A stretch of 64,000 nucleotides of DNA from Candidatus Latescibacterota bacterium (GTDB taxonomy: Bacteria; Latescibacterota; UBA2968): NCBI GenBank assembly GCA_965204745.1, contig OZ242010.1, forward strand, positions 4,224,001 to 4,288,000, given 5' to 3'. The notes under the pieces are model-generated. The model worked only from the letters and a program-made list of their open reading frames with translations, searched no databases and was not told the DNA's origin. Positions 1,059 through 18,378 of this stretch are shown here, piece after piece. How positions within the stretch are numbered: the stretch's first letter is position 1; each line of letters begins with the position of its first letter. A program made the translations under genes and the position numbers.

Positions 1059-2451
1059 CGGATGGTGCCGGGCCGGGGTCGCACACTTCGTTGAAGGTGG
1101 CGGGTAAGGGTTGGTGGATCACGGCTTGGATGCGCGACCGTTGCAGGGCGACCACATCGGGGTGATCCGCGGCGATGTCGGTGTTTTCGTCTGGATCGGT
1201 TGCGAGATCGAACAACTCTTCTTTTGCTGGATCGTTCAAACTCACCGTGTAATTCCACTGATCATCGCGCACGGATGCGCGGCCCGTTGCCGGGCCATTG
1301 GCAAAACTCGCCCAGCCAATGACGACGTGATCGCGCACGGCCTCTGCATCGCCCGTCACCAGCGGCCAAATATCCACGCCATCCACCGCGCTGCACGGAA
1401 TATCGAGCAGGCCGAGCACCGTGGGCAACAAGTCGTGGGCTTGCACAAAACCGGAAACCCGCTTGCGAACCCCCGGATGCCGTACCATCCAATTCAGGCG
1501 CGTGTTGTATGGATGCAGGCGATCCGGCCCCTTGCCAAATTGCCCGTGATCCAAAACTTGCGTGCCGTGATCCGACAGCAACATCACAATCGTCTCGTCT
1601 TTCAACCCCAGCTCATCGATCCGATTGAGCAGGTGCCCCACCCAGCGATCTACCAGCGTGACCTCGCCAAAGTACAAGGCTCGAATCCGCGCCTTCTCCG
1701 CATCGCTCGCCCCCTCGCCCTCGTTCCCCGCGCCCGGGGAAATAAAATCCTTGCCACTCCAGTTGGACAAATAGCGATCCGCGTAGTCCCGCGGCGGATC
1801 CCAGGGTTCGTGCGGGTCAAAGGAATCGACCCACAGGAAAAACGGCGCGTTGTCCGCGTTCTCGGTCAGCCAATCCGCGGCGCGGCGAAACACCCGGGCG
1901 CAGCTGTAATCCTCCTCGCGCTGCCGAAATTTTTGGTTGAACAGGTATTGCATCAGCCCGGTGTGGCGGTCCCAGTTGATCGGCTCGCGCACATGCGGGC
2001 GCAGCAAGTGTTCAATCGCGTCTCGCGTGCCAAACCGCCAGTTGTCGTTCTCTTGCCCGCGGATGAAATCGTAGGTGACAAATCCGCGCGTGTAGTTCAT
2101 CGTGGGCTTGAACATGTGGTAAGTGTCTGCGACCAACCCGGTCAGGTACCCATTCGCCAGCAGAATTTCCGAGAGGGTATCTTGTTCCGGCGGGATTTTG
2201 TGCCAGCCTGGCGCGTGGTGCCAGTGCCCGCGCCGGTCGAAATTGTAACGCCACGGAAAGGTGCGGCGGCCCGTGAACAAACCGCGCCGGGTCTGCAACG
2301 TGGGTTGGCATTCCCCGAAAGCCCGTTCAAACACCACGGCCTCGGCTACAAACGCATCGAGATGGGGCGTTTCGACAAAACTCAGTTTTTGATTTGGGCC
2401 GACGATATCGGCGCGAAACGTGTCCAAGCAGATACAGATGACGTTCATCAC
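1024..2451 (-). CDS. sulfatase-like hydrolase (alkaline phosphatase superfamily)
   Basis: NVICICLDTFRAD, TPHLD, RRGLFTGR, FDPHEPW, SDHG, ELFDLATDPDE motifs; GGAGG RBS. Confidence 0.9.
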   Translation of the reverse strand: MMNVICICLDTFRADIVGPNQKLSFVETPHLDAFVAEAVVFERAFGECQPTLQTRRGLFTGRRTFPWRYNFDRRGHWHHAPGWHKIPPEQDTLSEILLANGYLTGLVADTYHMFKPTMNYTRGFVTYDFIRGQENDNWRFGTRDAIEHLLRPHVREPINWDRHTGLMQYLFNQKFRQREEDYSCARVFRRAADWLTENADNAPFFLWVDSFDPHEPWDPPRDYADRYLSNWSGKDFISPGAGNEGEGASDAEKARIRALYFGEVTLVDRWVGHLLNRIDELGLKDETIVMLLSDHGTQVLDHGQFGKGPDRLHPYNTRLNWMVRHPGVRKRVSGFVQAHDLLPTVLGLLDIPCSAVDGVDIWPLVTGDAEAVRDHVVIGWASFANGPATGRASVRDDQWNYTVSLNDPAKEELFDLATDPDENTDIAADHPDVVALQRSRIQAVIHQPLPATFNEVCDPGPAPSVMFVQGRKKMR

Positions 2452-2463
2452 AAACCTCCAAAA

Positions 2464-4404
2464 TTAAAAATACAAACTGTGCCCTTGCCCTTGGAAGCAC
2501 AGGGCGTCGATGACAAAGGACGCGCCAGCCGCGGAAAAGTGCCCGACCACGAGGCCCACAAAAACGGGCTTGGCGCGGTTGTAGAGCATCAGGCCGCCGA
2601 AGCGGATCAGCAGCACTTTGATGGCCCAGGCCGCGAACAGGGACAACAACGTCCACTTCACTTGCCCCACAGAGGCGATAGAAAATCCAATGGGATGCAG
2701 GCGCCACCACGCGAACCGATGGCGGCAGTACGTCAGCAAAACCGTCACGAGCGCGCCCAAGGCCAAAAACGCGAAGTGCCCGAAGCGCAGGGTTTCTGCG
2801 GCTTTGATTTTCGCCACGACCGTATCAAAGGGCACTTGGCCGCCGCGCCGAAAAACCCATTCCCCAAAATTGTACGCGCCCGAGGCGTATGCCAGTTTGA
2901 GCGAAAAATAAAAGGACACCATCAAGCTGAGGGCCAGGGCCAAGCCCACGGCGGTGAGGTACGCGCCGCGCGGAAATCGCTGCTCGCTGTGGACGCGGGC
3001 CGCGTTCGCGCCAAAGGGCATAAATGTGGCGATGGGGTCGCACGCCCAGCCGTAGGACAGGCCGAGGCCGGTCATGGTCGCGGCCGTCAAATTCGCCGGG
3101 CCGACGAGGTGCATCGCGTACGCCTGCGGCACGAGCGGGCCGCGCACGAACACCAGCCCGCCTTCGATGACGATGCGCGTGAGGCCCAAATAAAGCGTGA
3201 CAACCGCAAAGAGCAACAGCGAAGCCACGCCCGGCTGGATCCCGATGCGCGTCAGCCAGAACAAAATGTAGAGCGCGCCGAGCGCGATGCCGAGCAGGGC
3301 CGCGCGATAGCCCATGATTTCCTCGCGGTCAGACGCGCCGTCGGCCTTGCCCCGTGCGGTTCGCCACACCCCGCGCAGATGTTCGCGCGCGACCCATATC
3401 CCGCCCATCACGACCGCGACAAAGGCCCCGAACCCCTGCCAGGCCAATGCGGCCGGGCTGACCGAATACACTTCGGACGTGCCGATAGTGAACCCCGTGC
3501 GGTTGAACAGCGCGACCTCGGCCATGTTGAACAGGTTGAAAAACCACACGCTGAAAATCACATCCACATTCACAAAATACGTGATGCCCACCAACGGCAG
3601 GGACAAGTTGGTCGAAATCCCCGGCCAGACCTGCCCGCCCAGGAGGTTCAAGCGGAGGGCCGGGATAGTGGGCCAGCCCTCAAAAAAGTAGCCCGGCACG
3701 TTCCACGCGATTTTGCCCGCGGCAATGCCAAAGCCGATCCAGAACAAGCGACTCCGCATGAATTGCGGTAGCAGGCGATCCTCACCTGCGCCCACCATCA
3801 TCATCAACGGGACGTCGACCAGCGGAAAATTGAGGCGTTCTTTGTCCTCCCACTGCTTGCGAAAAACCGCGATGAGACACGTACAAAGCGTCATGGTGGC
3901 GACGATGACGGACCCCCACCAGAACAGGGGCATGACCCACACGCGCCAGGGGATTTGCGCGCCCGGGGGCAGGCCCTCGAAAAACCACGCCACTTCGCGG
4001 CCTTCGCCGGGCACGGCCCACAAGGGTACATGGCTGTGGATGAACTCGGCCCATCCATTTTCGGTCGTGGCAAAATAAAAGGGCGACGCGGCTACGGAAA
4101 TCACGTAGCCGGTCGCCCCATACGTGGGCACGGATACCGCGACCAACAGCATCATATAGACCACGCCCAACTCATCGCCGGTCAGGCCGCCGCCGCGCTT
4201 TACAGCTTTCAAGATCGGATTGAGCACCACGACGACGAGGATGAACAACGCGGCCAAGCCCAACGGAAAATAATTGGTGGTCAACAGGGTGGATCGCACG
4301 ATCCATTCGGAATACGGCGCCAACAGATTCACCGCAACGACGACGAGAACGCCAATGCCCAATGCCTTTGGCGTGAGGACGGCCGCGGGCGGGGTTTCTG
4401 ACAT
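2464..4404 (-). CDS. polytopic membrane protein, DUF6785/DUF6784-like putative transporter
   Basis: many TM segments; RKQWEDKERLNFPL and WWRLHPIGF motifs; start set at ATG 4404 because the ORF extension runs through a repeat. Confidence 0.75.
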   Translation of the reverse strand: MSETPPAAVLTPKALGIGVLVVVAVNLLAPYSEWIVRSTLLTTNYFPLGLAALFILVVVVLNPILKAVKRGGGLTGDELGVVYMMLLVAVSVPTYGATGYVISVAASPFYFATTENGWAEFIHSHVPLWAVPGEGREVAWFFEGLPPGAQIPWRVWVMPLFWWGSVIVATMTLCTCLIAVFRKQWEDKERLNFPLVDVPLMMMVGAGEDRLLPQFMRSRLFWIGFGIAAGKIAWNVPGYFFEGWPTIPALRLNLLGGQVWPGISTNLSLPLVGITYFVNVDVIFSVWFFNLFNMAEVALFNRTGFTIGTSEVYSVSPAALAWQGFGAFVAVVMGGIWVAREHLRGVWRTARGKADGASDREEIMGYRAALLGIALGALYILFWLTRIGIQPGVASLLLFAVVTLYLGLTRIVIEGGLVFVRGPLVPQAYAMHLVGPANLTAATMTGLGLSYGWACDPIATFMPFGANAARVHSEQRFPRGAYLTAVGLALALSLMVSFYFSLKLAYASGAYNFGEWVFRRGGQVPFDTVVAKIKAAETLRFGHFAFLALGALVTVLLTYCRHRFAWWRLHPIGFSIASVGQVKWTLLSLFAAWAIKVLLIRFGGLMLYNRAKPVFVGLVVGHFSAAGASFVIDALCFQGQGHSLYF

Positions 4405-4655: not shown

Positions 4656-5663
4656 TCAAGGGGTTTTCGGGGTGATTCGATAGAATTTTTCGCCCTCAAA
4701 ATCTTGGTCATGGCGCAACATGCCCCAGATCGAATGGAGCAACTTTCGCATCACCGCAACGATAGCCTGCAAAGGTTTCTTGCCGCGGGCGATGAGTTGG
4801 TCATAGAAGGCTTTGACATGGCCTTCGTGTCTGATGGCCACCCAGGCAGGCATATAGAGGGCATGGCGGAGGTACTTATTCCCGGTTTTCGAGATGCGTC
4901 TTTGTGGATTGGCGGTTCCGGATTGTTTGGGTTTGGGATCCAGGCCTGCATGTGCGACCCACTGGGGCGGTTGCATCTCCTCTGGCAAAAGGGTCAACTC
5001 GGCCAAGAGCCGCAAGGCACTCGTTTGCGCGATGCCAGGCGTCGAGCAGAGGCGTTGGTAGGCACGCTTGAGGGGCTCATCGTGCAAAACGAGATCGAGG
5101 GCTTGGCTTTCCAAGTATGCAATCCGGCGTTTGAAGTGTCGAATATTCACCTGAATATCGCGTGCGATGAGACGTGTGCTGCGGATGTGGTAGCTCTGCG
5201 CGTGGTTGCGGCTCTGTTCGCGGATGATCTCCTGCTTGAGTTGGTCAATGCGTCTGGTGAGGGCTTGCAGTTGAAGCCGTTGCTCGCTCGGCGCTTGCCA
5301 AGGCACAAAAGGCATGCGCTCGGCATAGTCGAGGATCAACAACGCATCCTTCGCATCCGTCTTCGCCCGTTGCATGCAGGCTTGGGCGTACTTGCTCATC
5401 GCTTTGGGATTGACGACCATGACCTTTGTGTGGCGATGCCGATGCAAGGCCAAGGCCACCCCCAAACTGTAAAGCCCGGTCGCTTCGAGGCACACAGAGA
5501 CCATGTGCCCGCCCTTCGTGAGCCACTTCAGCAACCGCTTATGCGCTTGGGGATCATTGGCAAAGGTCGCTTGCATGACAGCTTGTCCGGGTCTGGACAG
5601 GGCAACGGACAACGTGCGGGCACTGACATCAATGCCGGCAAAAGCGGGGTGAGATTTCGACAT
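4656..5663 (-). CDS. IS110-family DEDD recombinase/transposase
   Basis: GIDVS, CLEATG, KTDAKDA (D-E-D-D), QSG serine motif, RISKTGNKYLRHALY, AVMRKLL; AGGAGG RBS before ATG 5663. Confidence 0.95.
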   Translation of the reverse strand: MSKSHPAFAGIDVSARTLSVALSRPGQAVMQATFANDPQAHKRLLKWLTKGGHMVSVCLEATGLYSLGVALALHRHRHTKVMVVNPKAMSKYAQACMQRAKTDAKDALLILDYAERMPFVPWQAPSEQRLQLQALTRRIDQLKQEIIREQSRNHAQSYHIRSTRLIARDIQVNIRHFKRRIAYLESQALDLVLHDEPLKRAYQRLCSTPGIAQTSALRLLAELTLLPEEMQPPQWVAHAGLDPKPKQSGTANPQRRISKTGNKYLRHALYMPAWVAIRHEGHVKAFYDQLIARGKKPLQAIVAVMRKLLHSIWGMLRHDQDFEGEKFYRITPKTP

Positions 5664-5734
5664 GGGGGCCTCCTGTGATGAGGGGGTTGTAAGGGATCTG
5701 GTGCGCGCTCGGGGTCGCGTCCCGACCATTGACG

Positions 5735-5916
5735 CCAAGTCTACCGGTCTTGTATATGCAGCCTCAAGGGGCTTAGATACTCTTCGGCATAGACCCGGCG
5801 GTCGGGGGGCCTATCTTACCTACAAGGTCATCGCCTTCAAGAGGGGCCGGCCTTCCCCGAGCCGGGCATCAAGATGGCTTATCTCGATACGAGGGCGCAA
5901 CTCCTAATTAACCCTT
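5735..5916 (-). ncRNA. predicted IS110 bridge RNA (ends approximate)
   Basis: target loop with guides at 5840-5848 and 5815-5821 around an AAGG/CCUU stem; donor loop with guides at 5775-5783 and 5749-5755 around an AGCC/GGCU stem, closed by GUCUA/UAGAC. Confidence 0.8.
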
Positions 5917-6003
5917 ACTTCCAAGATACAAGAGGGGAGACGTAAGATGCAATTTTAGCCACAAGCCAGGGACAGGGTCTCTGGCTCTTTTTGTGTCATT
6001 TCC

Positions 6004-6200
6004 GCTCCTTCAAATCATAACATCTTGTAACAAATCGTAACAAATCGCACATGTTACGTGAATGCGAAAGAAAGTTGATTTGATAGACGCTTCACAGGGC
6101 GTGCGTCCACGCGCTTACAACCTCGTGTCCGTCTTACAGCACCTCCACGTCCGTTTAGCGACTCGGCAGGGCTTGCCGCGTCGTAGTGTTTCAAATTGAT
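6004..6200 (-). ncRNA. putative omega/reRNA scaffold of TnpB (5' end approximate)
   Basis: position at the element 3' end overlapping the tnpB tail, as established for TnpB elements; structure not computed. Confidence 0.45.
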
Positions 6201-7283
6201 GGCCGCGTTCAAATCGCGGTTGAGGACGAGACCGCAAGACAAGCAGACATAGTCGCGCTGTGATAAATCCATAGCGACTTTGCGTTGTCCACAGCCTGAG
6301 CATGTCTTTGTGCTGGCAAACCACCGGTCGGCTTTTTCAAAAGCCACGCCAGACCATTGGCACTTGTATTCAAGCATGCGAAGGAATCCGCTGATACCTG
6401 CGCGGTGGAACGCACGCGACAGGCTCTTGTTGCGGCGCATACCAGCAACATTCAGCGTCTCGACAATCACCTTGCCAACGGTCGTCGCTTTGACAATCGC
6501 GGAAGTGGCTTTGTGGTGAACATCGTCGCGGATGTTGGTGATGCGCCCAAAGATGCGCTGTCGTTGGTCATACAAGCGTTGCCTGCGGTTACTGCGTTGG
6601 TTCTTGCCATGCGTGTTCTTTGACCGCGCAAGGGCTTTGTCCACACGGCGCAACTTGCGATACTGCGTATCTATCGCGCCCTTGGGATTGTCTATCGTCG
6701 TGCCATCCGAATAGGTTGCCAGCGTTTTCAATCCCATGTCGATGCCGATGGTTTCTCCGTCGCGTTTATCGGGCGGCTCCTGTCCTGTATCGACAGACAA
6801 GCAGACAAACCATCGGCCATGCGTCTTGGTTACGGTGGCTTTGACAATCGCGCCATTAAACCGCAGACGCTCGGCCATCTTGACCCAGCCAATTTTGGGC
6901 AGAAAGACCTTTTTGCCATCCACCTTGACCGTACCGGGCCCGTTATCGGCTTGATACGCACGCTTGCCAGAACGCTTGCGGTGTGTCGGGAAGCGCACGC
7001 GCAGTTTCTTGTTTCGCCAGTTCTTGATGGCTCTGTCAAGGTCGTGGATGGCATTCTTGGATGCGTATTGTGACAACTCGCCAGACCATTCATACTCGGC
7101 CTTTTTGACCACATTGAACTCGCGCTTGAGCGTATAAAGCGACTTGAACACGCCTGTATCCAGGGCGGCCTTGAACGCATTGAGCGCGTGATTGTACACC
7201 ACACGCGCATAGCCACAATGCTTTGAAAACAGCGTTGCTTGGGCTTGCGGGTGCATCAGTGCAATTTTGTGCGTCTTGACCAT
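6054..7283 (-). CDS. tnpB: RNA-guided endonuclease TnpB
   Basis: N-terminal HKIAL...GYARVVYNHAL, RuvC GIDMG / IVETLNV / RDLNAAINL, Zn ribbon CSGCG...CLSCG. Confidence 0.93.
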   Translation of the reverse strand: MVKTHKIALMHPQAQATLFSKHCGYARVVYNHALNAFKAALDTGVFKSLYTLKREFNVVKKAEYEWSGELSQYASKNAIHDLDRAIKNWRNKKLRVRFPTHRKRSGKRAYQADNGPGTVKVDGKKVFLPKIGWVKMAERLRFNGAIVKATVTKTHGRWFVCLSVDTGQEPPDKRDGETIGIDMGLKTLATYSDGTTIDNPKGAIDTQYRKLRRVDKALARSKNTHGKNQRSNRRQRLYDQRQRIFGRITNIRDDVHHKATSAIVKATTVGKVIVETLNVAGMRRNKSLSRAFHRAGISGFLRMLEYKCQWSGVAFEKADRWFASTKTCSGCGQRKVAMDLSQRDYVCLSCGLVLNRDLNAAINLKHYDAASPAESLNGRGGAVRRTRGCKRVDARPVKRLSNQLSFAFT

Positions 7284-11357: not shown

Positions 11358-12458
11358 TTAATTGACGATCTCGTACCGCGTATTTCGCCTGATGGGCGCG
11401 TATCCCGCGTCTTTGATGAGGCGTTGCATCTCCTGAAGCGTCATCGCATCCGTATGGCTCGTGCCGGCCGCGCTGACCACATTTTCTTCCATCATCGTGC
11501 TGCCAAAGTCGTTCACCCCGTATTTGAGGCTGACCTGCGCGATCTTGGCGCCCTGCGTTACCCATGACGCTTGAAAACTTTTGACATTGTCCAAGAACAG
11601 GCGCGCGATAGCGATGGTTCGCAAGTAGTCAAACCCACTTGACTTCGCGCCATTCCACCGCGCATCGTCCGCGCCGAGTGCCGTATCATCCGGCTGGAAA
11701 TTCCACGCGATAAATGCGGTGAACCCGCCGGTCTCGTCCTGCAACTCGCGGATGCGCGCCAAGTGTTCAATGCGCTGTTCGATAGTCTCCACGTGTCCGT
11801 ACATCATGGTCGCAGAGGTGTGCATGCCCAAGTCGTGGGCGATGCGATGCACGGCGATCCATTCGTGGACGCGGTCTTTGCGAAAGCCGATGATGTCGCG
11901 CACCTCGTCCGACAGGATTTCCGCGCCCGCGCCCGGGATGGAATCCAACCCGGCGTCGCGCAACCGGCGAATGCAGTCTTCGAGGGACAAGCGCGAGATG
12001 TGCGCGATGTAGATGATCTCGGTGGCGGACAGGCAATGCTGGTGAATTTGCGGATAGCGGTTGCGAATGTCGAAAAAGAGGTCTTCGTAATAATCCACGC
12101 GCAACTTGGGATTCAAGCCGCCTTGCATCAAAATTTCACTGCCCTTGGGCACGTCGCCGCCCACGGCGATGAGTTCGTCAATTTTTTCGAAAATCTGTTC
12201 TTTGGGCAACACATAGCCCTCGTCAGAACCCGGTGGGCGGTAAAACGCACAAAAATCGCATTTCACCCAACACACATTGGTGTAGTTGATGTTGCGCCCG
12301 ATATTGTACGTCACGCGGTCCGCGGGCCATTTGCGCCGGCGCACCACGTCGGCCAACATGCCCAATTCCGACACGTTGGGATGGGCAAACAAGCGCAGGG
12401 CATCGGCTTTGGAAACGCGCTCGGCGCGATAAATTTTTTCCGCAATATCATCGATCAT
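11358..12458 (-). CDS. mqnC: cyclic dehypoxanthine futalosine synthase (radical SAM)
   Basis: RNINYTNVCWVKCDFCAFYR, LMQGGLNP, SIPGAGAEIL, QASWVTQG, DFGSTMMEENVVSAAG. Confidence 0.93.
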   Translation of the reverse strand: MIDDIAEKIYRAERVSKADALRLFAHPNVSELGMLADVVRRRKWPADRVTYNIGRNINYTNVCWVKCDFCAFYRPPGSDEGYVLPKEQIFEKIDELIAVGGDVPKGSEILMQGGLNPKLRVDYYEDLFFDIRNRYPQIHQHCLSATEIIYIAHISRLSLEDCIRRLRDAGLDSIPGAGAEILSDEVRDIIGFRKDRVHEWIAVHRIAHDLGMHTSATMMYGHVETIEQRIEHLARIRELQDETGGFTAFIAWNFQPDDTALGADDARWNGAKSSGFDYLRTIAIARLFLDNVKSFQASWVTQGAKIAQVSLKYGVNDFGSTMMEENVVSAAGTSHTDAMTLQEMQRLIKDAGYAPIRRNTRYEIVN

Positions 12459-13039
12459 CTCGCGTCTCCTTCGGGATACCAAAGTTCGGAGAGTGGGATT
12501 TTCAATCCCGGAAACGAGGTCGGCGCGAACACGCCTGCCCCGGACACAGTCGCCTGAAGCATGGGCACAGTGAGGTCAAACGCCTCTAATACTTTTTGAT
12601 CCGCATCGACAATCCAGTATTCCCGCACGCCAAATTCGGCATAGATTCGCTTTTTTTCGATCCGATCTCTGTGCATGCTTGAAACCGATAGGACTTCGAT
12701 CATCAAATCGGGCGCGCCCGAGATATTGGTTTCCGCGATCAGGTCCAAGCGGTCTTTTGCAATGAATAGGATATCGGGTTGGACGACGGTTTCTGCCCGC
12801 GTGCCCCTGCCCAAGATAACATCTATGGGCGAACTGAAAACCCGCCCGAGGTCATTTTGTTTGACAAAGAGGCGCAACAAACCCGTCAGTTCATCGCAAG
12901 CCCATTGATGCCTCGGTATCGGTGCAGGTGCCACGCTCAATTCCCCCCTTAAAATTTCAAAGTTAGAACTGTCTGGCGGGGTAAGCGCGAGATAATCTTC
13001 GTACGTCCACCGCACTTTTTTTTGAATAGCAACAGCCAT
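12455..13039 (-). CDS. Uma2-family (DUF820) PD-(D/E)xK endonuclease-like protein
   Basis: WTYEDYL, PAPIPRHQ, VQPDILF, GAPDLMIEVLS, YAEFGVREYWIVD; GAGG before ATG 13039. Confidence 0.9.
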   Translation of the reverse strand: MAVAIQKKVRWTYEDYLALTPPDSSNFEILRGELSVAPAPIPRHQWACDELTGLLRLFVKQNDLGRVFSSPIDVILGRGTRAETVVQPDILFIAKDRLDLIAETNISGAPDLMIEVLSVSSMHRDRIEKKRIYAEFGVREYWIVDADQKVLEAFDLTVPMLQATVSGAGVFAPTSFPGLKIPLSELWYPEGDAR

Positions 13040-13107: not shown

Positions 13108-14256
13108 TCAGGCGATCACGGGGATCGCATCGGCGATTCCAAGGGGCGTTTCCGATTCGATCTCTCGATCTGTGGACAAAACGCGGTAGAGATTGTCGCG
13201 CTCGACCGGGTCGCGTCCGGCCTCGACAATGCGCTCGACGAGTTGTTTGCGCGTGAGCACTTGCCGGGTCTCGTGGTAGGAACGGCGCGTAATCTCGTAT
13301 TCTTGGATGGTGCCGTCGATATCGTCGGCGCCATACCACAACGCCACCTGCGAAATTTCGATGGTGTTCATAATCCAAAAGGTCTTGATGTGCGGGAAAT
13401 TGTCGAGCATCAAGCGGCCCACGGCGATCTCGCGCAAATCCGCAATGCCCGTGGGGCCGGGCAAATGCGCCAACTCGGTGCGCTCGGGGTGAAAGGACAG
13501 GGGGATATACGTCAAAAAGCCGCCGGTCTCGTCTTGTAAGTCGCGCAATCGCACGAGGTGATCGATGCGCTCTTGCGGGTTTTCGATATGCCCATACAGC
13601 ATGGTCGCATTGGTGTGCAAGCCAACTTCGTGCGCCGTGCGCGCCACGCTGAGCCATTGTTCGGAATCCGCCTTGGTCCAAAACAAGTCTTCTTGCACGC
13701 GGTCGCTAAACACTTCCGCGCCCCCGCCGGGAATGGACGACACGCCGGCCGCTTTGAGTTCGGTCATCACGTCTTTCAAGGGCTTTTTTGCAATGCGCGC
13801 AATTTGCACCCATTCGATAGCCGTGAACGCTTTGACCGCCACATCGGGCCGCACGTCTTTGACCGCGCGCACGATGTCGAGGTAATACGAATAGGGGAGT
13901 TTGGGATTGACGCCCGCGACCATGTGGATTTCGGAAATGGGCAGGTGGATGTATTGCAACACGCGCTTTTGGACGTCTTCGGGCGACAACACGTAGCCCC
14001 GTTCGTCTTTGGGCTTCACGTAAAAAGAGCAAAACCGACACAACTTGTTGCACACATTGGTGTAGTTGATGTGCTGATTGCGGACGTACCACGCCACCTT
14101 GCCGCACATGCGTTCGCGCACGATATTCGCCAAATACCCCACGGCATTGAGATCCGGCGTTTCGTACAGGCGCGTGCCATCTTCGGCGGAGAGCCGCTGG
14201 CCCAAGGCCACTTTTTCTTCGATATCTCGAAGTTCGTCTGGAATGTTCCGTTTCAC
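13108..14256 (-). CDS. mqnE: aminofutalosine synthase (radical SAM)
   Basis: HINYTNVCNKLCRFCSF, EIHMVAG, KAFTAIE, PGGGAEVF, NATMLYGHIE, HIKTFWIM, GADDIDGTI. Confidence 0.92.
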   Translation of the reverse strand: MKRNIPDELRDIEEKVALGQRLSAEDGTRLYETPDLNAVGYLANIVRERMCGKVAWYVRNQHINYTNVCNKLCRFCSFYVKPKDERGYVLSPEDVQKRVLQYIHLPISEIHMVAGVNPKLPYSYYLDIVRAVKDVRPDVAVKAFTAIEWVQIARIAKKPLKDVMTELKAAGVSSIPGGGAEVFSDRVQEDLFWTKADSEQWLSVARTAHEVGLHTNATMLYGHIENPQERIDHLVRLRDLQDETGGFLTYIPLSFHPERTELAHLPGPTGIADLREIAVGRLMLDNFPHIKTFWIMNTIEISQVALWYGADDIDGTIQEYEITRRSYHETRQVLTRKQLVERIVEAGRDPVERDNLYRVLSTDREIESETPLGIADAIPVIA

Positions 14257-14274
14257 ACCGCGCTCCTTTGGCGA

Positions 14275-14649
14275 TCAAATCTCTTGTGAGCTGAGGTTAT
14301 GGGCCTCAAATTTTTCGGGATCAAAATAACTGTCAAAGTTCAAATAATGAGACATTTTGTAAATATTGCCTTTTTTGTCTTCAACGCTGGCAAGGACCTC
14401 AAATTTACCCCACACCCAAACTGTCAACTTGCAATTTGGATTTGACAGGCTTCGTTGCACACTTTTGTGCTGAACTTGAAAGGGATGCAGAGTGTATGTG
14501 ACACGTTTGACAAACGGCACATCTGGGCCAGTCAAAAAAATAAAAATTTTGTAGTAACGTCTTTCATTTTTTGACCGGTAATAGACAACGCGTTCTCGAC
14601 CCTTGGGATCAAATGGCGTATCCGCAATCCAAACATTAAGATCTCTCAT
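14275..14649 (-). CDS. prokaryotic YEATS (pYEATS) domain protein
   Basis: YYKIFIFLTG...VKRVTYTLHP...LTVWVWGKFEV pattern; AT-richer than flanks. Confidence 0.75.
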   Translation of the reverse strand: MRDLNVWIADTPFDPKGRERVVYYRSKNERRYYKIFIFLTGPDVPFVKRVTYTLHPFQVQHKSVQRSLSNPNCKLTVWVWGKFEVLASVEDKKGNIYKMSHYLNFDSYFDPEKFEAHNLSSQEI

Positions 14650-14667
14650 GGTATGTCCTTTCGCAGA

Positions 14668-15210
14668 TTAGGTTCTGTTGCCCGATTCGTTTTCATCATC
14701 CCGTCCCGGACTTTCAGGAACATCACTATCCGGTGGCCGAACATCGCCAGTATCATCCTCTTTCTGTTCTGCCTCGCGTCCTACTGAAGTGGTGATGGAT
14801 TCCGCTTTTTTCCCAGCGGCAGATTCGCCAAAATAGTAACCGATAACAGAACCGATAAGCCCACCCAAAGAAGCAACGACAGCATGCAAACCATCCTTAA
14901 ATACCTCGATATCAAAGTCATTGCGCCAAGTAATAAACAATACAGACAAGAGCGCGACTACAAAAACCAAGGTTAAAGTACTCGCCAATAAATGCCTGAA
15001 ATCATTGATAATTTCTATCATGAACTGTGCTACCATATACCGAATAGAAGGTCTGTCATCGCTGTCGGTCGTTGCCTCACTTTTCCGAAAACGCCCCCAC
15101 TTAAAAAGCCATGCGGTCCATTGAATCAACAAGGTCAAAAAAAATAAAATGCCCACAAGCACTGCAAATCCGTGTGTATTTTCACTCAAAAAATCAAGAA
15201 TAGAAGTCAT
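14668..15210 (-). CDS. hypothetical membrane protein (about 3 TM, acidic tail)
   Basis: hydrophobic segments, LGGLIGSVIGYYFG motif; ATG overlaps the recN stop (ATGA). Confidence 0.75.
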   Translation of the reverse strand: MTSILDFLSENTHGFAVLVGILFFLTLLIQWTAWLFKWGRFRKSEATTDSDDRPSIRYMVAQFMIEIINDFRHLLASTLTLVFVVALLSVLFITWRNDFDIEVFKDGLHAVVASLGGLIGSVIGYYFGESAAGKKAESITTSVGREAEQKEDDTGDVRPPDSDVPESPGRDDENESGNRT

Positions 15211-16916
15211 GAAAGTTCCCTTTCTCGCAACATCTCCCGCGCGTGTTGCAGGGTCAGGTCGGAAATTTCCTCGCCGCCCATCATCAAGGCGAGTTCGCCT
15301 GCGCGTGCGTCTTCATCGAGTGGGACGACCCGCGTGACCGTGCGCTGCTCGACCACTTCTTTTTGCACCGAAAAATGCAGGTCCGCCATTTTTGCGATTT
15401 GCGGCAAGTGCGTAATGGAAATGGTTTGATAGGCCGATGACAGATCGCGCAATTTCTTGCCGACCACCTCGGCGATGCGCCCGGAAATGCCGATGTCAAT
15501 TTCGTCAAAGATCAGCACCTGCACGGAATCGGTATGCGCCAGCACGGTTTTCATCGCCAGCATAATGCGCGAAATCTCCCCGCCGGACGCCACTTTCGCC
15601 AAGGGCCGAACCGCTTCCCCCGGGTTGGTGGAGATGAAAAACTCGCCGCGCTCTATCCCGCGTGGGCCGGCTTCAAACCGCTGCCCGTCGCATTCGATCA
15701 ACCCCTGTGGGTCAACGCGCCGCTCGAGTTGCACGTCAAATTGCACATCTGTCATGCCCAGTTCGCGCAGGGCACACACGATGGCTTTGGACAATTTGCC
15801 CGCTGCTTTGTGACGCCCGCTCGAGAGTTTTTCGCAACAGGCCGCAAACGCCTGCATGGCATCGTCAATTTTGACCTGAATCTCCTGCAAAGAGGCTTCG
15901 AGTTCGTCCGACAATGCCAATTCCTCTTCCGCCTTCTCGCGATAAGATATCACCCGAGAGAGATCGCCGCCGTACTTTTTCTTCAGCGCGTTCAGGGTTT
16001 CCAACCGATCCGCGACTTCCATCAGCCGCTCGGGATTGTGCTCCACGCGGTTGGCGTAATCGCCAAAGGAACGGGCCAATTCCTCCGCGCCATAGCGCAG
16101 GCCATTGAGTTCTTCGGCGATAGATCCCAAACTCGGGTCCATTTGCGCGGCCTCGTCCAAGAGGTGCGCGCCTTCGCCGAGTTGGTCCGCCACGGATTGG
16201 TCGCCTTCGTAGAGCACATGCTCGATCTGAACCGCGATCTCGATCAGGCGTTCTGCGTGCGAGAGGATGGATCGTTCTCGTTCCAAGCGCGCGTCTTCCT
16301 CTGTTTCTGGATTTGCCGCCTGGATTTCTGCGATCTGAAATTCCAACAACGCACGGCGTTCGCGCTGGCGTTGGGCAACCGCGGTTTTTTCGATCAGCCG
16401 ATTTTGCAATGCCACCACCTGTTCGTACATTTTTTCGACCTGTGCGCGTGCGAATTGCAAGTTGCCAAACCCGTCCAAAAAGTCCAGATGCCGATCCGTG
16501 TTGAGCAGGGATTGATGGTCGTGTTGCCCGTGCAAATCGACCAAGGCGCGGCCCAAGTCCCGAAGCACGCGCACCGGAATCGCCAAGCCATTGGCATAGC
16601 ACCGGCTACGGCCTTCTGCCAACACGTCGCGGCGCACGATCAACTCGCCCTCGTCTGCGTCAATGCCTATCGCGTCTAACAGGCCGAGCAACGGATGGTC
16701 GGCATACAGTTCAAAAATGGCTTCGACCGTGCATTTTTGTTCGCCCGTGCGGATCACATCCGGACTCGCCCGCATGCCCAGCACCAGGCCCAATGCGCCC
16801 ACGAGAATGGATTTCCCCGCGCCGGTTTCACCGGTAATGATGTTTAGCCCTTTGCCAAATTCGACTTTTAGGTCGTCGATCAGGGCGTAGTTGATGACGT
16901 GCAATCGACACAACAC
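15207..16916 (-). CDS. recN: DNA repair protein RecN
   Basis: ITGETGAGKS, HGQHDHQ, ASGGEISR, IFDEID, ITHLPQIA. Confidence 0.97.
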   Translation of the reverse strand: MLCRLHVINYALIDDLKVEFGKGLNIITGETGAGKSILVGALGLVLGMRASPDVIRTGEQKCTVEAIFELYADHPLLGLLDAIGIDADEGELIVRRDVLAEGRSRCYANGLAIPVRVLRDLGRALVDLHGQHDHQSLLNTDRHLDFLDGFGNLQFARAQVEKMYEQVVALQNRLIEKTAVAQRQRERRALLEFQIAEIQAANPETEEDARLERERSILSHAERLIEIAVQIEHVLYEGDQSVADQLGEGAHLLDEAAQMDPSLGSIAEELNGLRYGAEELARSFGDYANRVEHNPERLMEVADRLETLNALKKKYGGDLSRVISYREKAEEELALSDELEASLQEIQVKIDDAMQAFAACCEKLSSGRHKAAGKLSKAIVCALRELGMTDVQFDVQLERRVDPQGLIECDGQRFEAGPRGIERGEFFISTNPGEAVRPLAKVASGGEISRIMLAMKTVLAHTDSVQVLIFDEIDIGISGRIAEVVGKKLRDLSSAYQTISITHLPQIAKMADLHFSVQKEVVEQRTVTRVVPLDEDARAGELALMMGGEEISDLTLQHAREMLRERELS

Positions 16917-18127: not shown

Positions 18128-18158
18128 ACTGACTACTGACTACTGACTACTGACCACT
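18128..18158 (+). repeat. ACTGAC(T/C) heptamer tandem repeat preceded by a G-rich tract
   Basis: direct reading. Confidence 0.9.
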
Positions 18159-18169
18159 GCATCTCCCCT

Positions 18170-18378
18170 CTTGTATCTTCGGGCGAGCACAGGGGCATCG
18201 CCCCTACACACACCGCTCGCCTTTGAACGGACTATCGCCATACCCCTTTTGTGCCTTTGAACTGGCTATCGCCTTTTGTGCCTTTGAACTGGCTATCGCC
18301 TTTTGTGCCTTTGAACTGGCTATCGCCAGTTATACCCCTTTTGTGCCTTTTGTGCCTTTTGTGGCTAAAATCTCATCT
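18170..18378 (+). repeat. REP-containing small repeat element, copy B, with a 3x 27-bp internal tandem repeat
   Basis: starts CT-TGTATCTT, REP hairpin, (TTTTGTGCCTTTGAACTGGCTATCGCC)x3, ends GTGGCTAAAATCTCATCT. Confidence 0.85.

Follow-up and report, generated by a model that had tools for sequence, protein, structure and literature searches.

Burroughs and Aravind are said to have defined the pYEATS domain of prokaryotic conflict systems, in J Bacteriol in 2020. Eukaryotic YEATS domains read acyl-lysine. In CBASS, Pycsar, Thoeris and type III CRISPR systems, a sensor controls small transmembrane effectors that are considered to disrupt the membrane. The literature that we searched holds no bacterial YEATS protein with a tested function. 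Here we describe two adjacent genes on contig OZ242010.1 of a Candidatus Latescibacterota bacterium, in a stretch of 64,000 nucleotides (nt) that we call the window and from whose first letter all window coordinates are counted. The first gene (14668-15210, minus strand) encodes a membrane protein of 180 amino acids (aa) with three helices, the predicted effector. The second (14275-14649, minus strand) encodes a stand-alone, cytoplasmic pYEATS protein of 124 aa, the predicted sensor or adaptor. The two genes are one obligate pair, and the pairing is strict in both directions. Our preferred explanation, which we hold with moderate confidence, is that they make up a mobile conflict module in which the pYEATS protein, acting as sensor or adaptor, controls a glycine-zipper membrane effector. 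This explanation draws on the observed fold, family membership, strict pairing, topology signal, distribution, deletions and fusions.

The second gene encodes a full-length member of the pYEATS family of conflict systems (PF20305), but here the domain stands alone in a 124-aa protein and is tied to a single family of membrane proteins. This gene neighbourhood may already have been noted by Burroughs and Aravind in 2020, and we therefore do not rate the finding as categorically new. The concept of a cytoplasmic sensor combined with a small helical membrane protein is shared with the effectors of CBASS, Pycsar, Thoeris and type III CRISPR systems (Cap15, SLATT, PycTM, Csx28). The module differs from them in that its sensor would be a polypeptide of its own, in that it encodes neither a nucleotide cyclase nor any other signal maker, and in that the proteins show no sequence relation. 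A second resemblance is to STAND and NLR-like proteins (Avs, bNACHT and the ternary systems of PMC7159879), through a relative in which pYEATS occupies the N-terminal slot of a protein with NB-ARC and TPR regions, with the membrane gene upstream. Membrane-proximal iSTAND systems are described in passages of Kaur et al. (eLife 2020, PMC7159879). The module in the window has neither an NTPase nor a repeat sensor and is the minimal two-gene form, the NB-ARC being found only in that relative. By analogy, the module appears most like the sensor-plus-membrane-effector units of CBASS, Pycsar or Thoeris and also resembles STAND adaptor-effector pairs; it belongs to none of them, because their defining parts are absent. 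The original prediction had not recognised it as a named system, and PADLOC, NCBIfam and PHROGs indeed yielded no match.

The evidence for an obligate pair comes from searches that started from either gene. On genome contigs, 59 loci were found through the membrane protein. A pYEATS open reading frame (ORF) lies directly downstream on the same strand in 56 of them, and in the remaining three the contig ends no more than about 150 nt past the membrane gene. In relatives, the pYEATS coding start falls between -8 and +171 nt from the membrane-gene stop. From the other side, metagenomes were scanned with alignment A5 (13 Bacteroidota sequences) and the pattern [IL]WTWGxFx[VI][KRN], toward which this sample is biased. 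The 64 loci obtained were filtered to 49 that score high with the subfamily profile and then to 42 whose contigs extend 600 nt or more beyond pYEATS on its upstream side; in all 42 the next gene there is the membrane gene. The two tests are not fully independent, since some of the metagenome contigs duplicate genome loci. That the genes form a two-gene unit had been put forward with co-occurrence as its check, and the pairing proved stronger than proposed. No third gene is conserved across the loci that carry the pair. Exactly one pYEATS is present in each of five carrier genomes, and in genome G000 both genes are single-copy. Pairwise identities are correlated between the two proteins (r=0.66, with a maximum of 0.14 in 1000 label permutations), which reflects joint inheritance rather than contact, because kin share history. 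A complex prediction made with alignments A3 and A2 scored 0.00 in two runs against a mark of 0.32, with no controls folded, and weighs neither way on binding.

Other pYEATS architectures do without this membrane partner. They carry a C-terminal pYEATS in frames of 157-544 aa, one of them with a transglutaminase core, and the 15 lower-scoring metagenome loci belong here; the membrane partner is missing in all of these 15 except L152. In L152, the pYEATS domain is part of a 158-aa frame, and upstream of it is a weak match to the membrane family (31 bits) that bears GYYFG. In L088, from the same phylum as the window, a 185-aa membrane protein that keeps GYYFG and matches part of the family profile (26 bits) precedes a pYEATS of 102 aa (1492-2367, minus strand). 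These divergent pairs indicate that the module family is wider than our search patterns. In yet another membrane-linked architecture (L094, Flavobacteriales, 1210-1749), a 179-aa protein has one N-terminal transmembrane helix fused directly to pYEATS and adjoins a protein with a phage-tail-collar domain and a DUF2975 membrane protein.

The assignment of the second gene to pYEATS had called for confirmation with a hidden Markov model, and both the model and the fold bear it out. The protein matches Pfam PF20305 with 52.4 bits against a cut-off of 26.9 (E 4.9e-14), the whole model (1-73 of 73) aligning at residues 33-104; in a genome-wide search the score is 52.1 bits, and 0 of 14 control genomes have a match. 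The model of the eukaryotic domain, PF03366, scores 22.0 bits on the window protein, which is at its cut-off. An AlphaFold2 (AF2) model based on 56 homologues (pLDDT 89.0, pTM 0.81) has eight strands in an immunoglobulin-like beta sandwich that can be superimposed on solved YEATS domains. A Foldseek search of the PDB with this model returned 34 matches at E<=1e-3, and those listed are all YEATS domains. The best is Taf14 (7f4a, E 9.5e-5, TMq 0.54), and the family profile matches YEATS2 (5iql, E 5.2e-5).

The pYEATS family also appears to have kept the pocket. Among 56 sequences, Y33, G41, Y52, H55, N70, G81 and F83 are invariant, and F57, W78 and W80 are conserved at 90% or more. The family motifs Y-x-L-H-x-T-F and W-T-W-G-x-F align on LHPSY and GWGEF of YEATS2 in a profile alignment. 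The protein thus carries a pattern like that of an acyl-lysine reader pocket, a histidine, two aromatics and Gly-x-Phe (H55, F57, W80, G81, F83), whose equivalents we take to be the acyl-lysine cage positions of the eukaryotic readers. The eukaryotic readers AF9, ENL, YEATS2, GAS41, Taf14 and Yaf9 share the fold, with TM-scores of 0.47-0.56 among the matches listed, and their histidine, two aromatic positions and G-x-F appear aligned and conserved in the bacterial family. They differ in that identity is only 14-24%, that the chromatin context is absent here and that the partner is a membrane protein. The window protein is one residue short between H55 and F57, within the LHxTF motif. PADLOC-DB 2.0.0 holds 0 families that match the pYEATS protein.

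The membrane protein founds a conserved family that has no model in Pfam, NCBIfam or PADLOC. Its AF2 model (pLDDT 78.9) has helices at residues 12-35, 56-96 and 101-145, followed by a disordered tail. Lysines and arginines average 6.1 in the loop that follows helix 1, against 0.7 at the N-terminus and 0.6 in the loop that follows helix 2, which by the positive-inside rule gives an N-out/C-in topology. This signal points to an inner-membrane protein with its N-terminus outside and its C-terminal tail inside. In alignments A1 and A3, F71, L75, A76, G120, G124, Y126, F127 and G128 are invariant, and G39, D70, H73, G116, G117, Y125, E129 and S130 nearly so. Conserved stretches include W-G-R-F after helix 1, I-I-N-D-F-R-H-L-L-A at the cytoplasmic entry of helix 2 and a proline-rich patch in the tail. 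Within the predicted helix 101-145, four glycines spaced at i, i+4, i+8 and i+12 (G116, conserved at 0.98, and G120, G124 and G128, at 1.00) form a glycine zipper, that is, at least three glycines in a small-xxx-small repeat on one transmembrane helix, and G-Y-Y-F-G-E-S closes the motif. GxxxGxxxG packing is associated with channel- and pore-forming helices. The likeness to glycine-zipper proteins appears limited to this motif.

The family is sizeable. A word-index search found 182 homologues, and when 1.84 billion cluster representatives were scanned with HMMER, 185 reached E<=1e-30, 254 reached E<=1e-10 and 707 reached E<=1e-3. The best 150 representatives are 125-280 aa long, and all of them are too short to contain pYEATS as a fusion. 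Among proteins made longer by fusion, a search with the pYEATS alignment A2 found no fused form, which is weak evidence. Matches to described families are lacking throughout the collections searched. In Pfam no model exceeds its cut-off, the best being FixQ (14.8 bits, cut-off 29), DUF1673 (14.0, cut-off 30.4) and Yip1 (10.9, cut-off 28.6), and none of the known transmembrane effector families there, SLATT included, matches above cut-off. NCBIfam and PHROGs gave only rows below threshold. Foldseek found nothing in the PDB at E<=0.001 with the membrane-protein model, the wide VIA-align search found only generic helical hairpins (Z<=7.4), and the ESM Atlas returned only clusters of 'hypothetical protein'. 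Since PHROGs gave no match, we set aside the idea that the protein stems from a phage or a holin.

The distribution of the pair is wide and patchy. Carriers bear at least 13 phylum labels, and the starred branches in a tree of the concatenated pair imply at least three origins for Pseudomonadota and at least two for Acidobacteriota. The pair is present in 4 of 168 genomes of the phylum of the window and in 3 of 21 species of its genus. Among 401 Flavobacteriales genomes, 3 have a pYEATS above its cut-off; 3 of 121 Tenacibaculum genomes have the membrane gene. In other lineages, omega (dN/dS, the ratio of nonsynonymous to synonymous divergence) is 0.06-0.28 for both genes, computed on pairs of relatives with unsaturated synonymous divergence (dS), and both genes are therefore maintained by selection. 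Since homologues occur in many phyla and evolve at these ratios, the sequences indicate that both ORFs are real genes and not chance frames.

That the pair was inserted between recN and mqnE had been proposed from its composition and its tight junctions. Both genes are indeed richer in AT than their neighbours: GC content is 0.40 for the pYEATS gene and 0.44 for the membrane gene against 0.57-0.58 for the flanks, GC at third codon positions (GC3) is 0.40 and 0.41 against 0.70-0.74, and in 300-nt windows GC is 0.41-0.47 across 14200-15249 against 0.52-0.63 on both sides. The membrane gene starts on the stop codon of recN, in an ATGA overlap read directly from the sequence (15207-15210, minus strand), and the pYEATS gene ends 18 nt before mqnE. 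The genus provides the empty sites. Junctions between recN and mqnE could be read in 20 of its 21 species, and 16 hold no trace of the pair; there, recN abuts mqnE across a 27-72-nt spacer and has a 3' end different from that in the window. G000 and G016 hold the pair with an identical ATGA junction (in locus L002 of G016, recN ends at 909 and the membrane gene starts at 906). G001 retains a remnant in which 17 membrane-gene codons are joined to the C-terminal half of pYEATS. G018 retains a scar made of the first membrane-gene codons and a 3' spacer homologous to 14257-14274 of the window. Since recN is most similar among these four species (86-94% identity, against 81-85% for the rest), we infer a single insertion followed by two independent deletions within the genus. 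The mqnE homologue of G015 (L084, 1160-2304) is split over two frames, covering residues 1-121 and 115-382, and is either frameshifted or misassembled.

The two intact copies have diverged more than their surroundings. The flanks of G000 and G016 are 94% identical, with dS 0.26-0.39 and omega 0.07-0.14, whereas the pair is 52% and 60-62% identical, with dS of about 1.0-1.1 and omega 0.41 and 0.26. One possibility is that recombination through the conserved flanks replaced the allele, which would account for the excess synonymous divergence and for GC3 values that have not been ameliorated.

Where only one gene of the pair is broken, it is the membrane gene. All 56 loci that were ascertained by an intact membrane gene also have an intact pYEATS. 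Of the 42 metagenome loci ascertained through pYEATS, 4 have a break in the membrane gene only, and in a fifth, L146, both genes are frameshifted. Comparing 0 of 56 with 5 of 42, the 5 including L146, gives p=0.0125 in a Fisher test on samples drawn from different kinds of data. L062 is a further locus with a break in the membrane gene only: compared with L043, a near-identical relative, it has lost 188 nt inside the gene and with them the frame. One-sided breakage is the pattern expected if the membrane protein is costly or harmful without pYEATS.

The same pattern is what a selfish, toxin-antitoxin-like addiction cassette would leave, one in which the membrane protein is a toxin, pYEATS its neutraliser whose loss is lethal, and any defence secondary. 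Such a cassette would have small genes that are closely spaced or overlapping, a foreign composition and a patchy, transferable distribution, all of which we see, and the membrane gene is either broken alone or lost together with pYEATS. We nevertheless consider it quite improbable. Apart from one transposase neighbour (L047), we saw no plasmid, transposon or phage context, and viral contigs hold no match; a YEATS fold with a conserved ligand pocket exceeds the needs of a simple neutraliser; and the NB-ARC and TPR fusion indicates regulated activation rather than plain addiction. The addiction explanation overlaps with the conflict module that we favour, because many abortive-infection systems look alike.

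A decaying passenger, without present function in this genome, is the least probable of the alternatives and in our view very unlikely. Two of the four related species have lost the insert, the window pYEATS lacks a residue in its LHxTF motif, and one contig of run X5, with a depth of 4.3, skips 477 nt of the membrane gene (window 14660-15138), with 5 other letters between, and has an 11-nt deletion nearby, at 15188. Either an assembly error or a minor strain variant whose membrane gene is broken may explain this contig. On the other hand, both frames are intact in the window, the dN/dS values between G000 and G016 are far below 1, and near-identical intact copies of the cassette are found in contigs of four DNA runs from four studies.

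Elaborated relatives suggest how the conflict module might be wired. In the metagenome contig L133 (1072-4041), a canonical membrane gene is followed by an 804-aa protein with an N-terminal pYEATS, NB-ARC and TPR. In NLR-like proteins, the N-terminal slot is filled by an effector or by a piece that recruits one. pYEATS may thus couple to the membrane protein, since it fills that slot in L133. In L047 (4468-5907), pYEATS is fused to an FGE-sulfatase domain and a DDE transposase adjoins. The pair is followed by an FGE-sulfatase gene in L043 (5036-6154), a Saprospiraceae contig nearly identical to L062, and in L062 itself (2448-3794; Saprospiraceae) by a TIR and FGE-sulfatase gene, whose N-terminal TIR is ThsB-like at 5e-31. 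A 2026 preprint from the same school as the authors who defined pYEATS counts pYEATS and FGS among the ligand-binding domains of conflict systems.

On the explanation that we prefer, the pair would be one obligate, horizontally mobile accessory module of an anti-phage or abortive-infection-like kind. The membrane protein would be its effector, whose oligomerisation damages or gates the membrane. The pYEATS protein would dock on the cytoplasmic face of the membrane protein and hold or release it, and the trigger would be a ligand or partner sensed in the YEATS aromatic pocket. In the elaborated relatives the trigger would instead be sensed by the attached sensor module, and pYEATS would be the coupling piece between sensor and membrane effector, as the NB-ARC and TPR, FGE-sulfatase and TIR relatives suggest. 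Physical contact between the two proteins, the formation of a pore, the direction of control, the division of sensor and actor roles between the two genes and the role in defence are the parts that we infer. In a more specific form, the bacterial YEATS protein would be an immune adaptor or reader whose pocket sees an acylated lysine or planar amide and triggers a glycine-zipper pore that kills or arrests the cell. The target would then be a host or phage molecule, possibly the cytoplasmic tail of the membrane partner itself. We regard this form as unlikely.

Gene neighbourhoods gave a less favourable answer. To either side of the 59 loci we took the closest ORF that was 90 aa or longer, 109 ORFs in raw counts, and discounted cross-matches of RecN to mad3. 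A clear defence neighbour is found at 6 of the 59 loci (L007, L015, L019, L021, L035 and L062): DpdF in L007 (4e-144), HEC-01A in L035 (2e-145) and IetA in L015, L019 and L021 (about 1e-61), three Tenacibaculum loci that are kin; the neighbours of the pair in the window are housekeeping genes. With most neighbours of this kind, the pair does not usually sit in defence islands. The clustering in such islands that the original prediction had named as a check is not supported by these raw counts, and the defence role that it proposed has indirect support, from a patchy, transferable and often-deleted distribution and from the rare NB-ARC and TPR, FGE-sulfatase and TIR relatives. Its suggestion of a pair co-expressed with a DNA repair gene gained no support as a meaningful link, the linkage to recN being peculiar to this genus. 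A functional link with recN was rejected, as besides L005 of the same genus a RecN-like neighbour occurs only at L061, where it is convergent.

In the three Tenacibaculum loci, an IetA-like ATPase and a further conserved gene lie between the pair and S1 (at about 5240-6550), and in four related loci S1 directly follows the pair. From this difference, the Tenacibaculum site seems to collect accessory systems.

Several observations, taken together, weigh against a conflict module. At 53 of the 59 loci, no nearest neighbour is clearly of a defence type; the neighbours are mostly housekeeping genes and variable (RecN, PBP1, Lon, IspG, LpxD, S1, Rho, FabI and others). In the window the pair lies inside a housekeeping operon, and the promoter-like and terminator-like sites around it are as frequent as expected by chance (3 against 3.1 and 7 against 7.2). 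If the Bacteroidota copies are one clade, as they may be, the pair has spread in part by vertical descent. For the NB-ARC fusion as for the FGE-sulfatase fusion we have one contig, and the frameshifts seen in metagenome contigs could stem from faulty assembly. Conservation of the pocket has exceptions: in P0004-P0006, which come from metagenomes and share 68-75% identity with the window pYEATS, proline replaces the otherwise invariant pocket histidine and arginine replaces W78, while F57, W80, G81 and F83 are retained. In this closest clade, the pocket is either varying or decaying. The module lacks both an enzyme that would make a signal and an effector recognisable as an enzyme. Neither protein matches PADLOC-DB 2.0.0, where the membrane protein retrieves only ZorA2 (E 0.098, 9.4 bits), and the literature searched contains no experiment on a bacterial YEATS protein.

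Part of this evidence would suit a non-immune accessory module, a small channel or membrane-stress factor tuned by a pYEATS protein that reads the metabolic state, for example lysine acylation or an acyl-carrying metabolite, with a physiological, habitat-specific benefit. Housekeeping neighbours predominate and the pair is often within operons; PspC/toast-rack envelope-stress genes lie directly upstream in L029, L057 and L036; the YEATS pocket residues are conserved, and eukaryotic YEATS domains read acyl-lysine; and the membrane gene is found in no viral contig (62 pattern matches, 0 relatives), to which the possible single clade in Bacteroidota may be added. Because L029 and L057 are closely related, however, the PspC link amounts to at most two independent instances. 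Nor would one expect a physiological module to be as patchy as this one is in Tenacibaculum and in the genus of the window, or to be deleted twice within four close species, and the NB-ARC and TPR fusion, the FGE-sulfatase fusion and the TIR neighbour are typical of immune systems. We consider this explanation possible, if somewhat unlikely.

Around the pair in the window, all on the minus strand, the genes run in the order NAD kinase, recN, the 180-aa ORF, the 124-aa ORF, mqnE, a Uma2-family gene, mqnC and an MqnA/MqnD-type gene. The upstream flank, recN (15207-16916), matches the NCBIfam equivalog TIGR00634 with 528.9 bits against a cut-off of 407.85. The downstream flank, mqnE (13108-14256), encodes aminofutalosine synthase and matches the equivalog TIGR03700 with 451.3 bits against 434.55. 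Between the two genes of the pair, an 18-nt spacer (14650-14667, minus strand) contains the ribosome-binding-like motif AAAGGA before the ATG of pYEATS. The 18-nt spacer from the pYEATS stop to the GTG start of mqnE (14257-14274, minus strand) contains AAAGGAG and is the right-hand junction of the insert.

A putative restriction endonuclease gene of the Uma2 family (PF05685, E 7.1e-29) lies at 12455-13012 on the minus strand, between mqnE and mqnC. In relatives, the distance between these two genes is either about 30 nt or about 630-740 nt, and Uma2 is therefore a second small insert of the same operon that is also variable within the genus. Elsewhere in the window, a perfect 27-nt tandem repeat (3.1 copies) occupies 18245-18327 and is followed by a 9-nt repeat (3.0 copies, 18337-18363) that has the first 9 bases of the 27-nt unit, and a 7-nt repeat is present at 18128-18159.

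As a minimal two-gene system, the pair makes the function of a bacterial YEATS protein directly testable, with a defined partner and with pocket and zipper residues that can be mutated. Its natural variants link it to NLR-like, FGE-sulfatase and TIR modules. Should the module prove not to be defensive, it would still be a clean obligate gene pair of puzzling logic. If it is defensive, it would represent a new type of effector and would bear on the bacterial ancestry of a eukaryotic chromatin reader. If its YEATS protein acts as an immune reader of acyl groups, a prokaryotic YEATS protein would for the first time have a function, and the acyl-lysine reader of eukaryotic chromatin would then go back to a bacterial defence module that is linked to the membrane and can also be coupled to NLR-like sensors.

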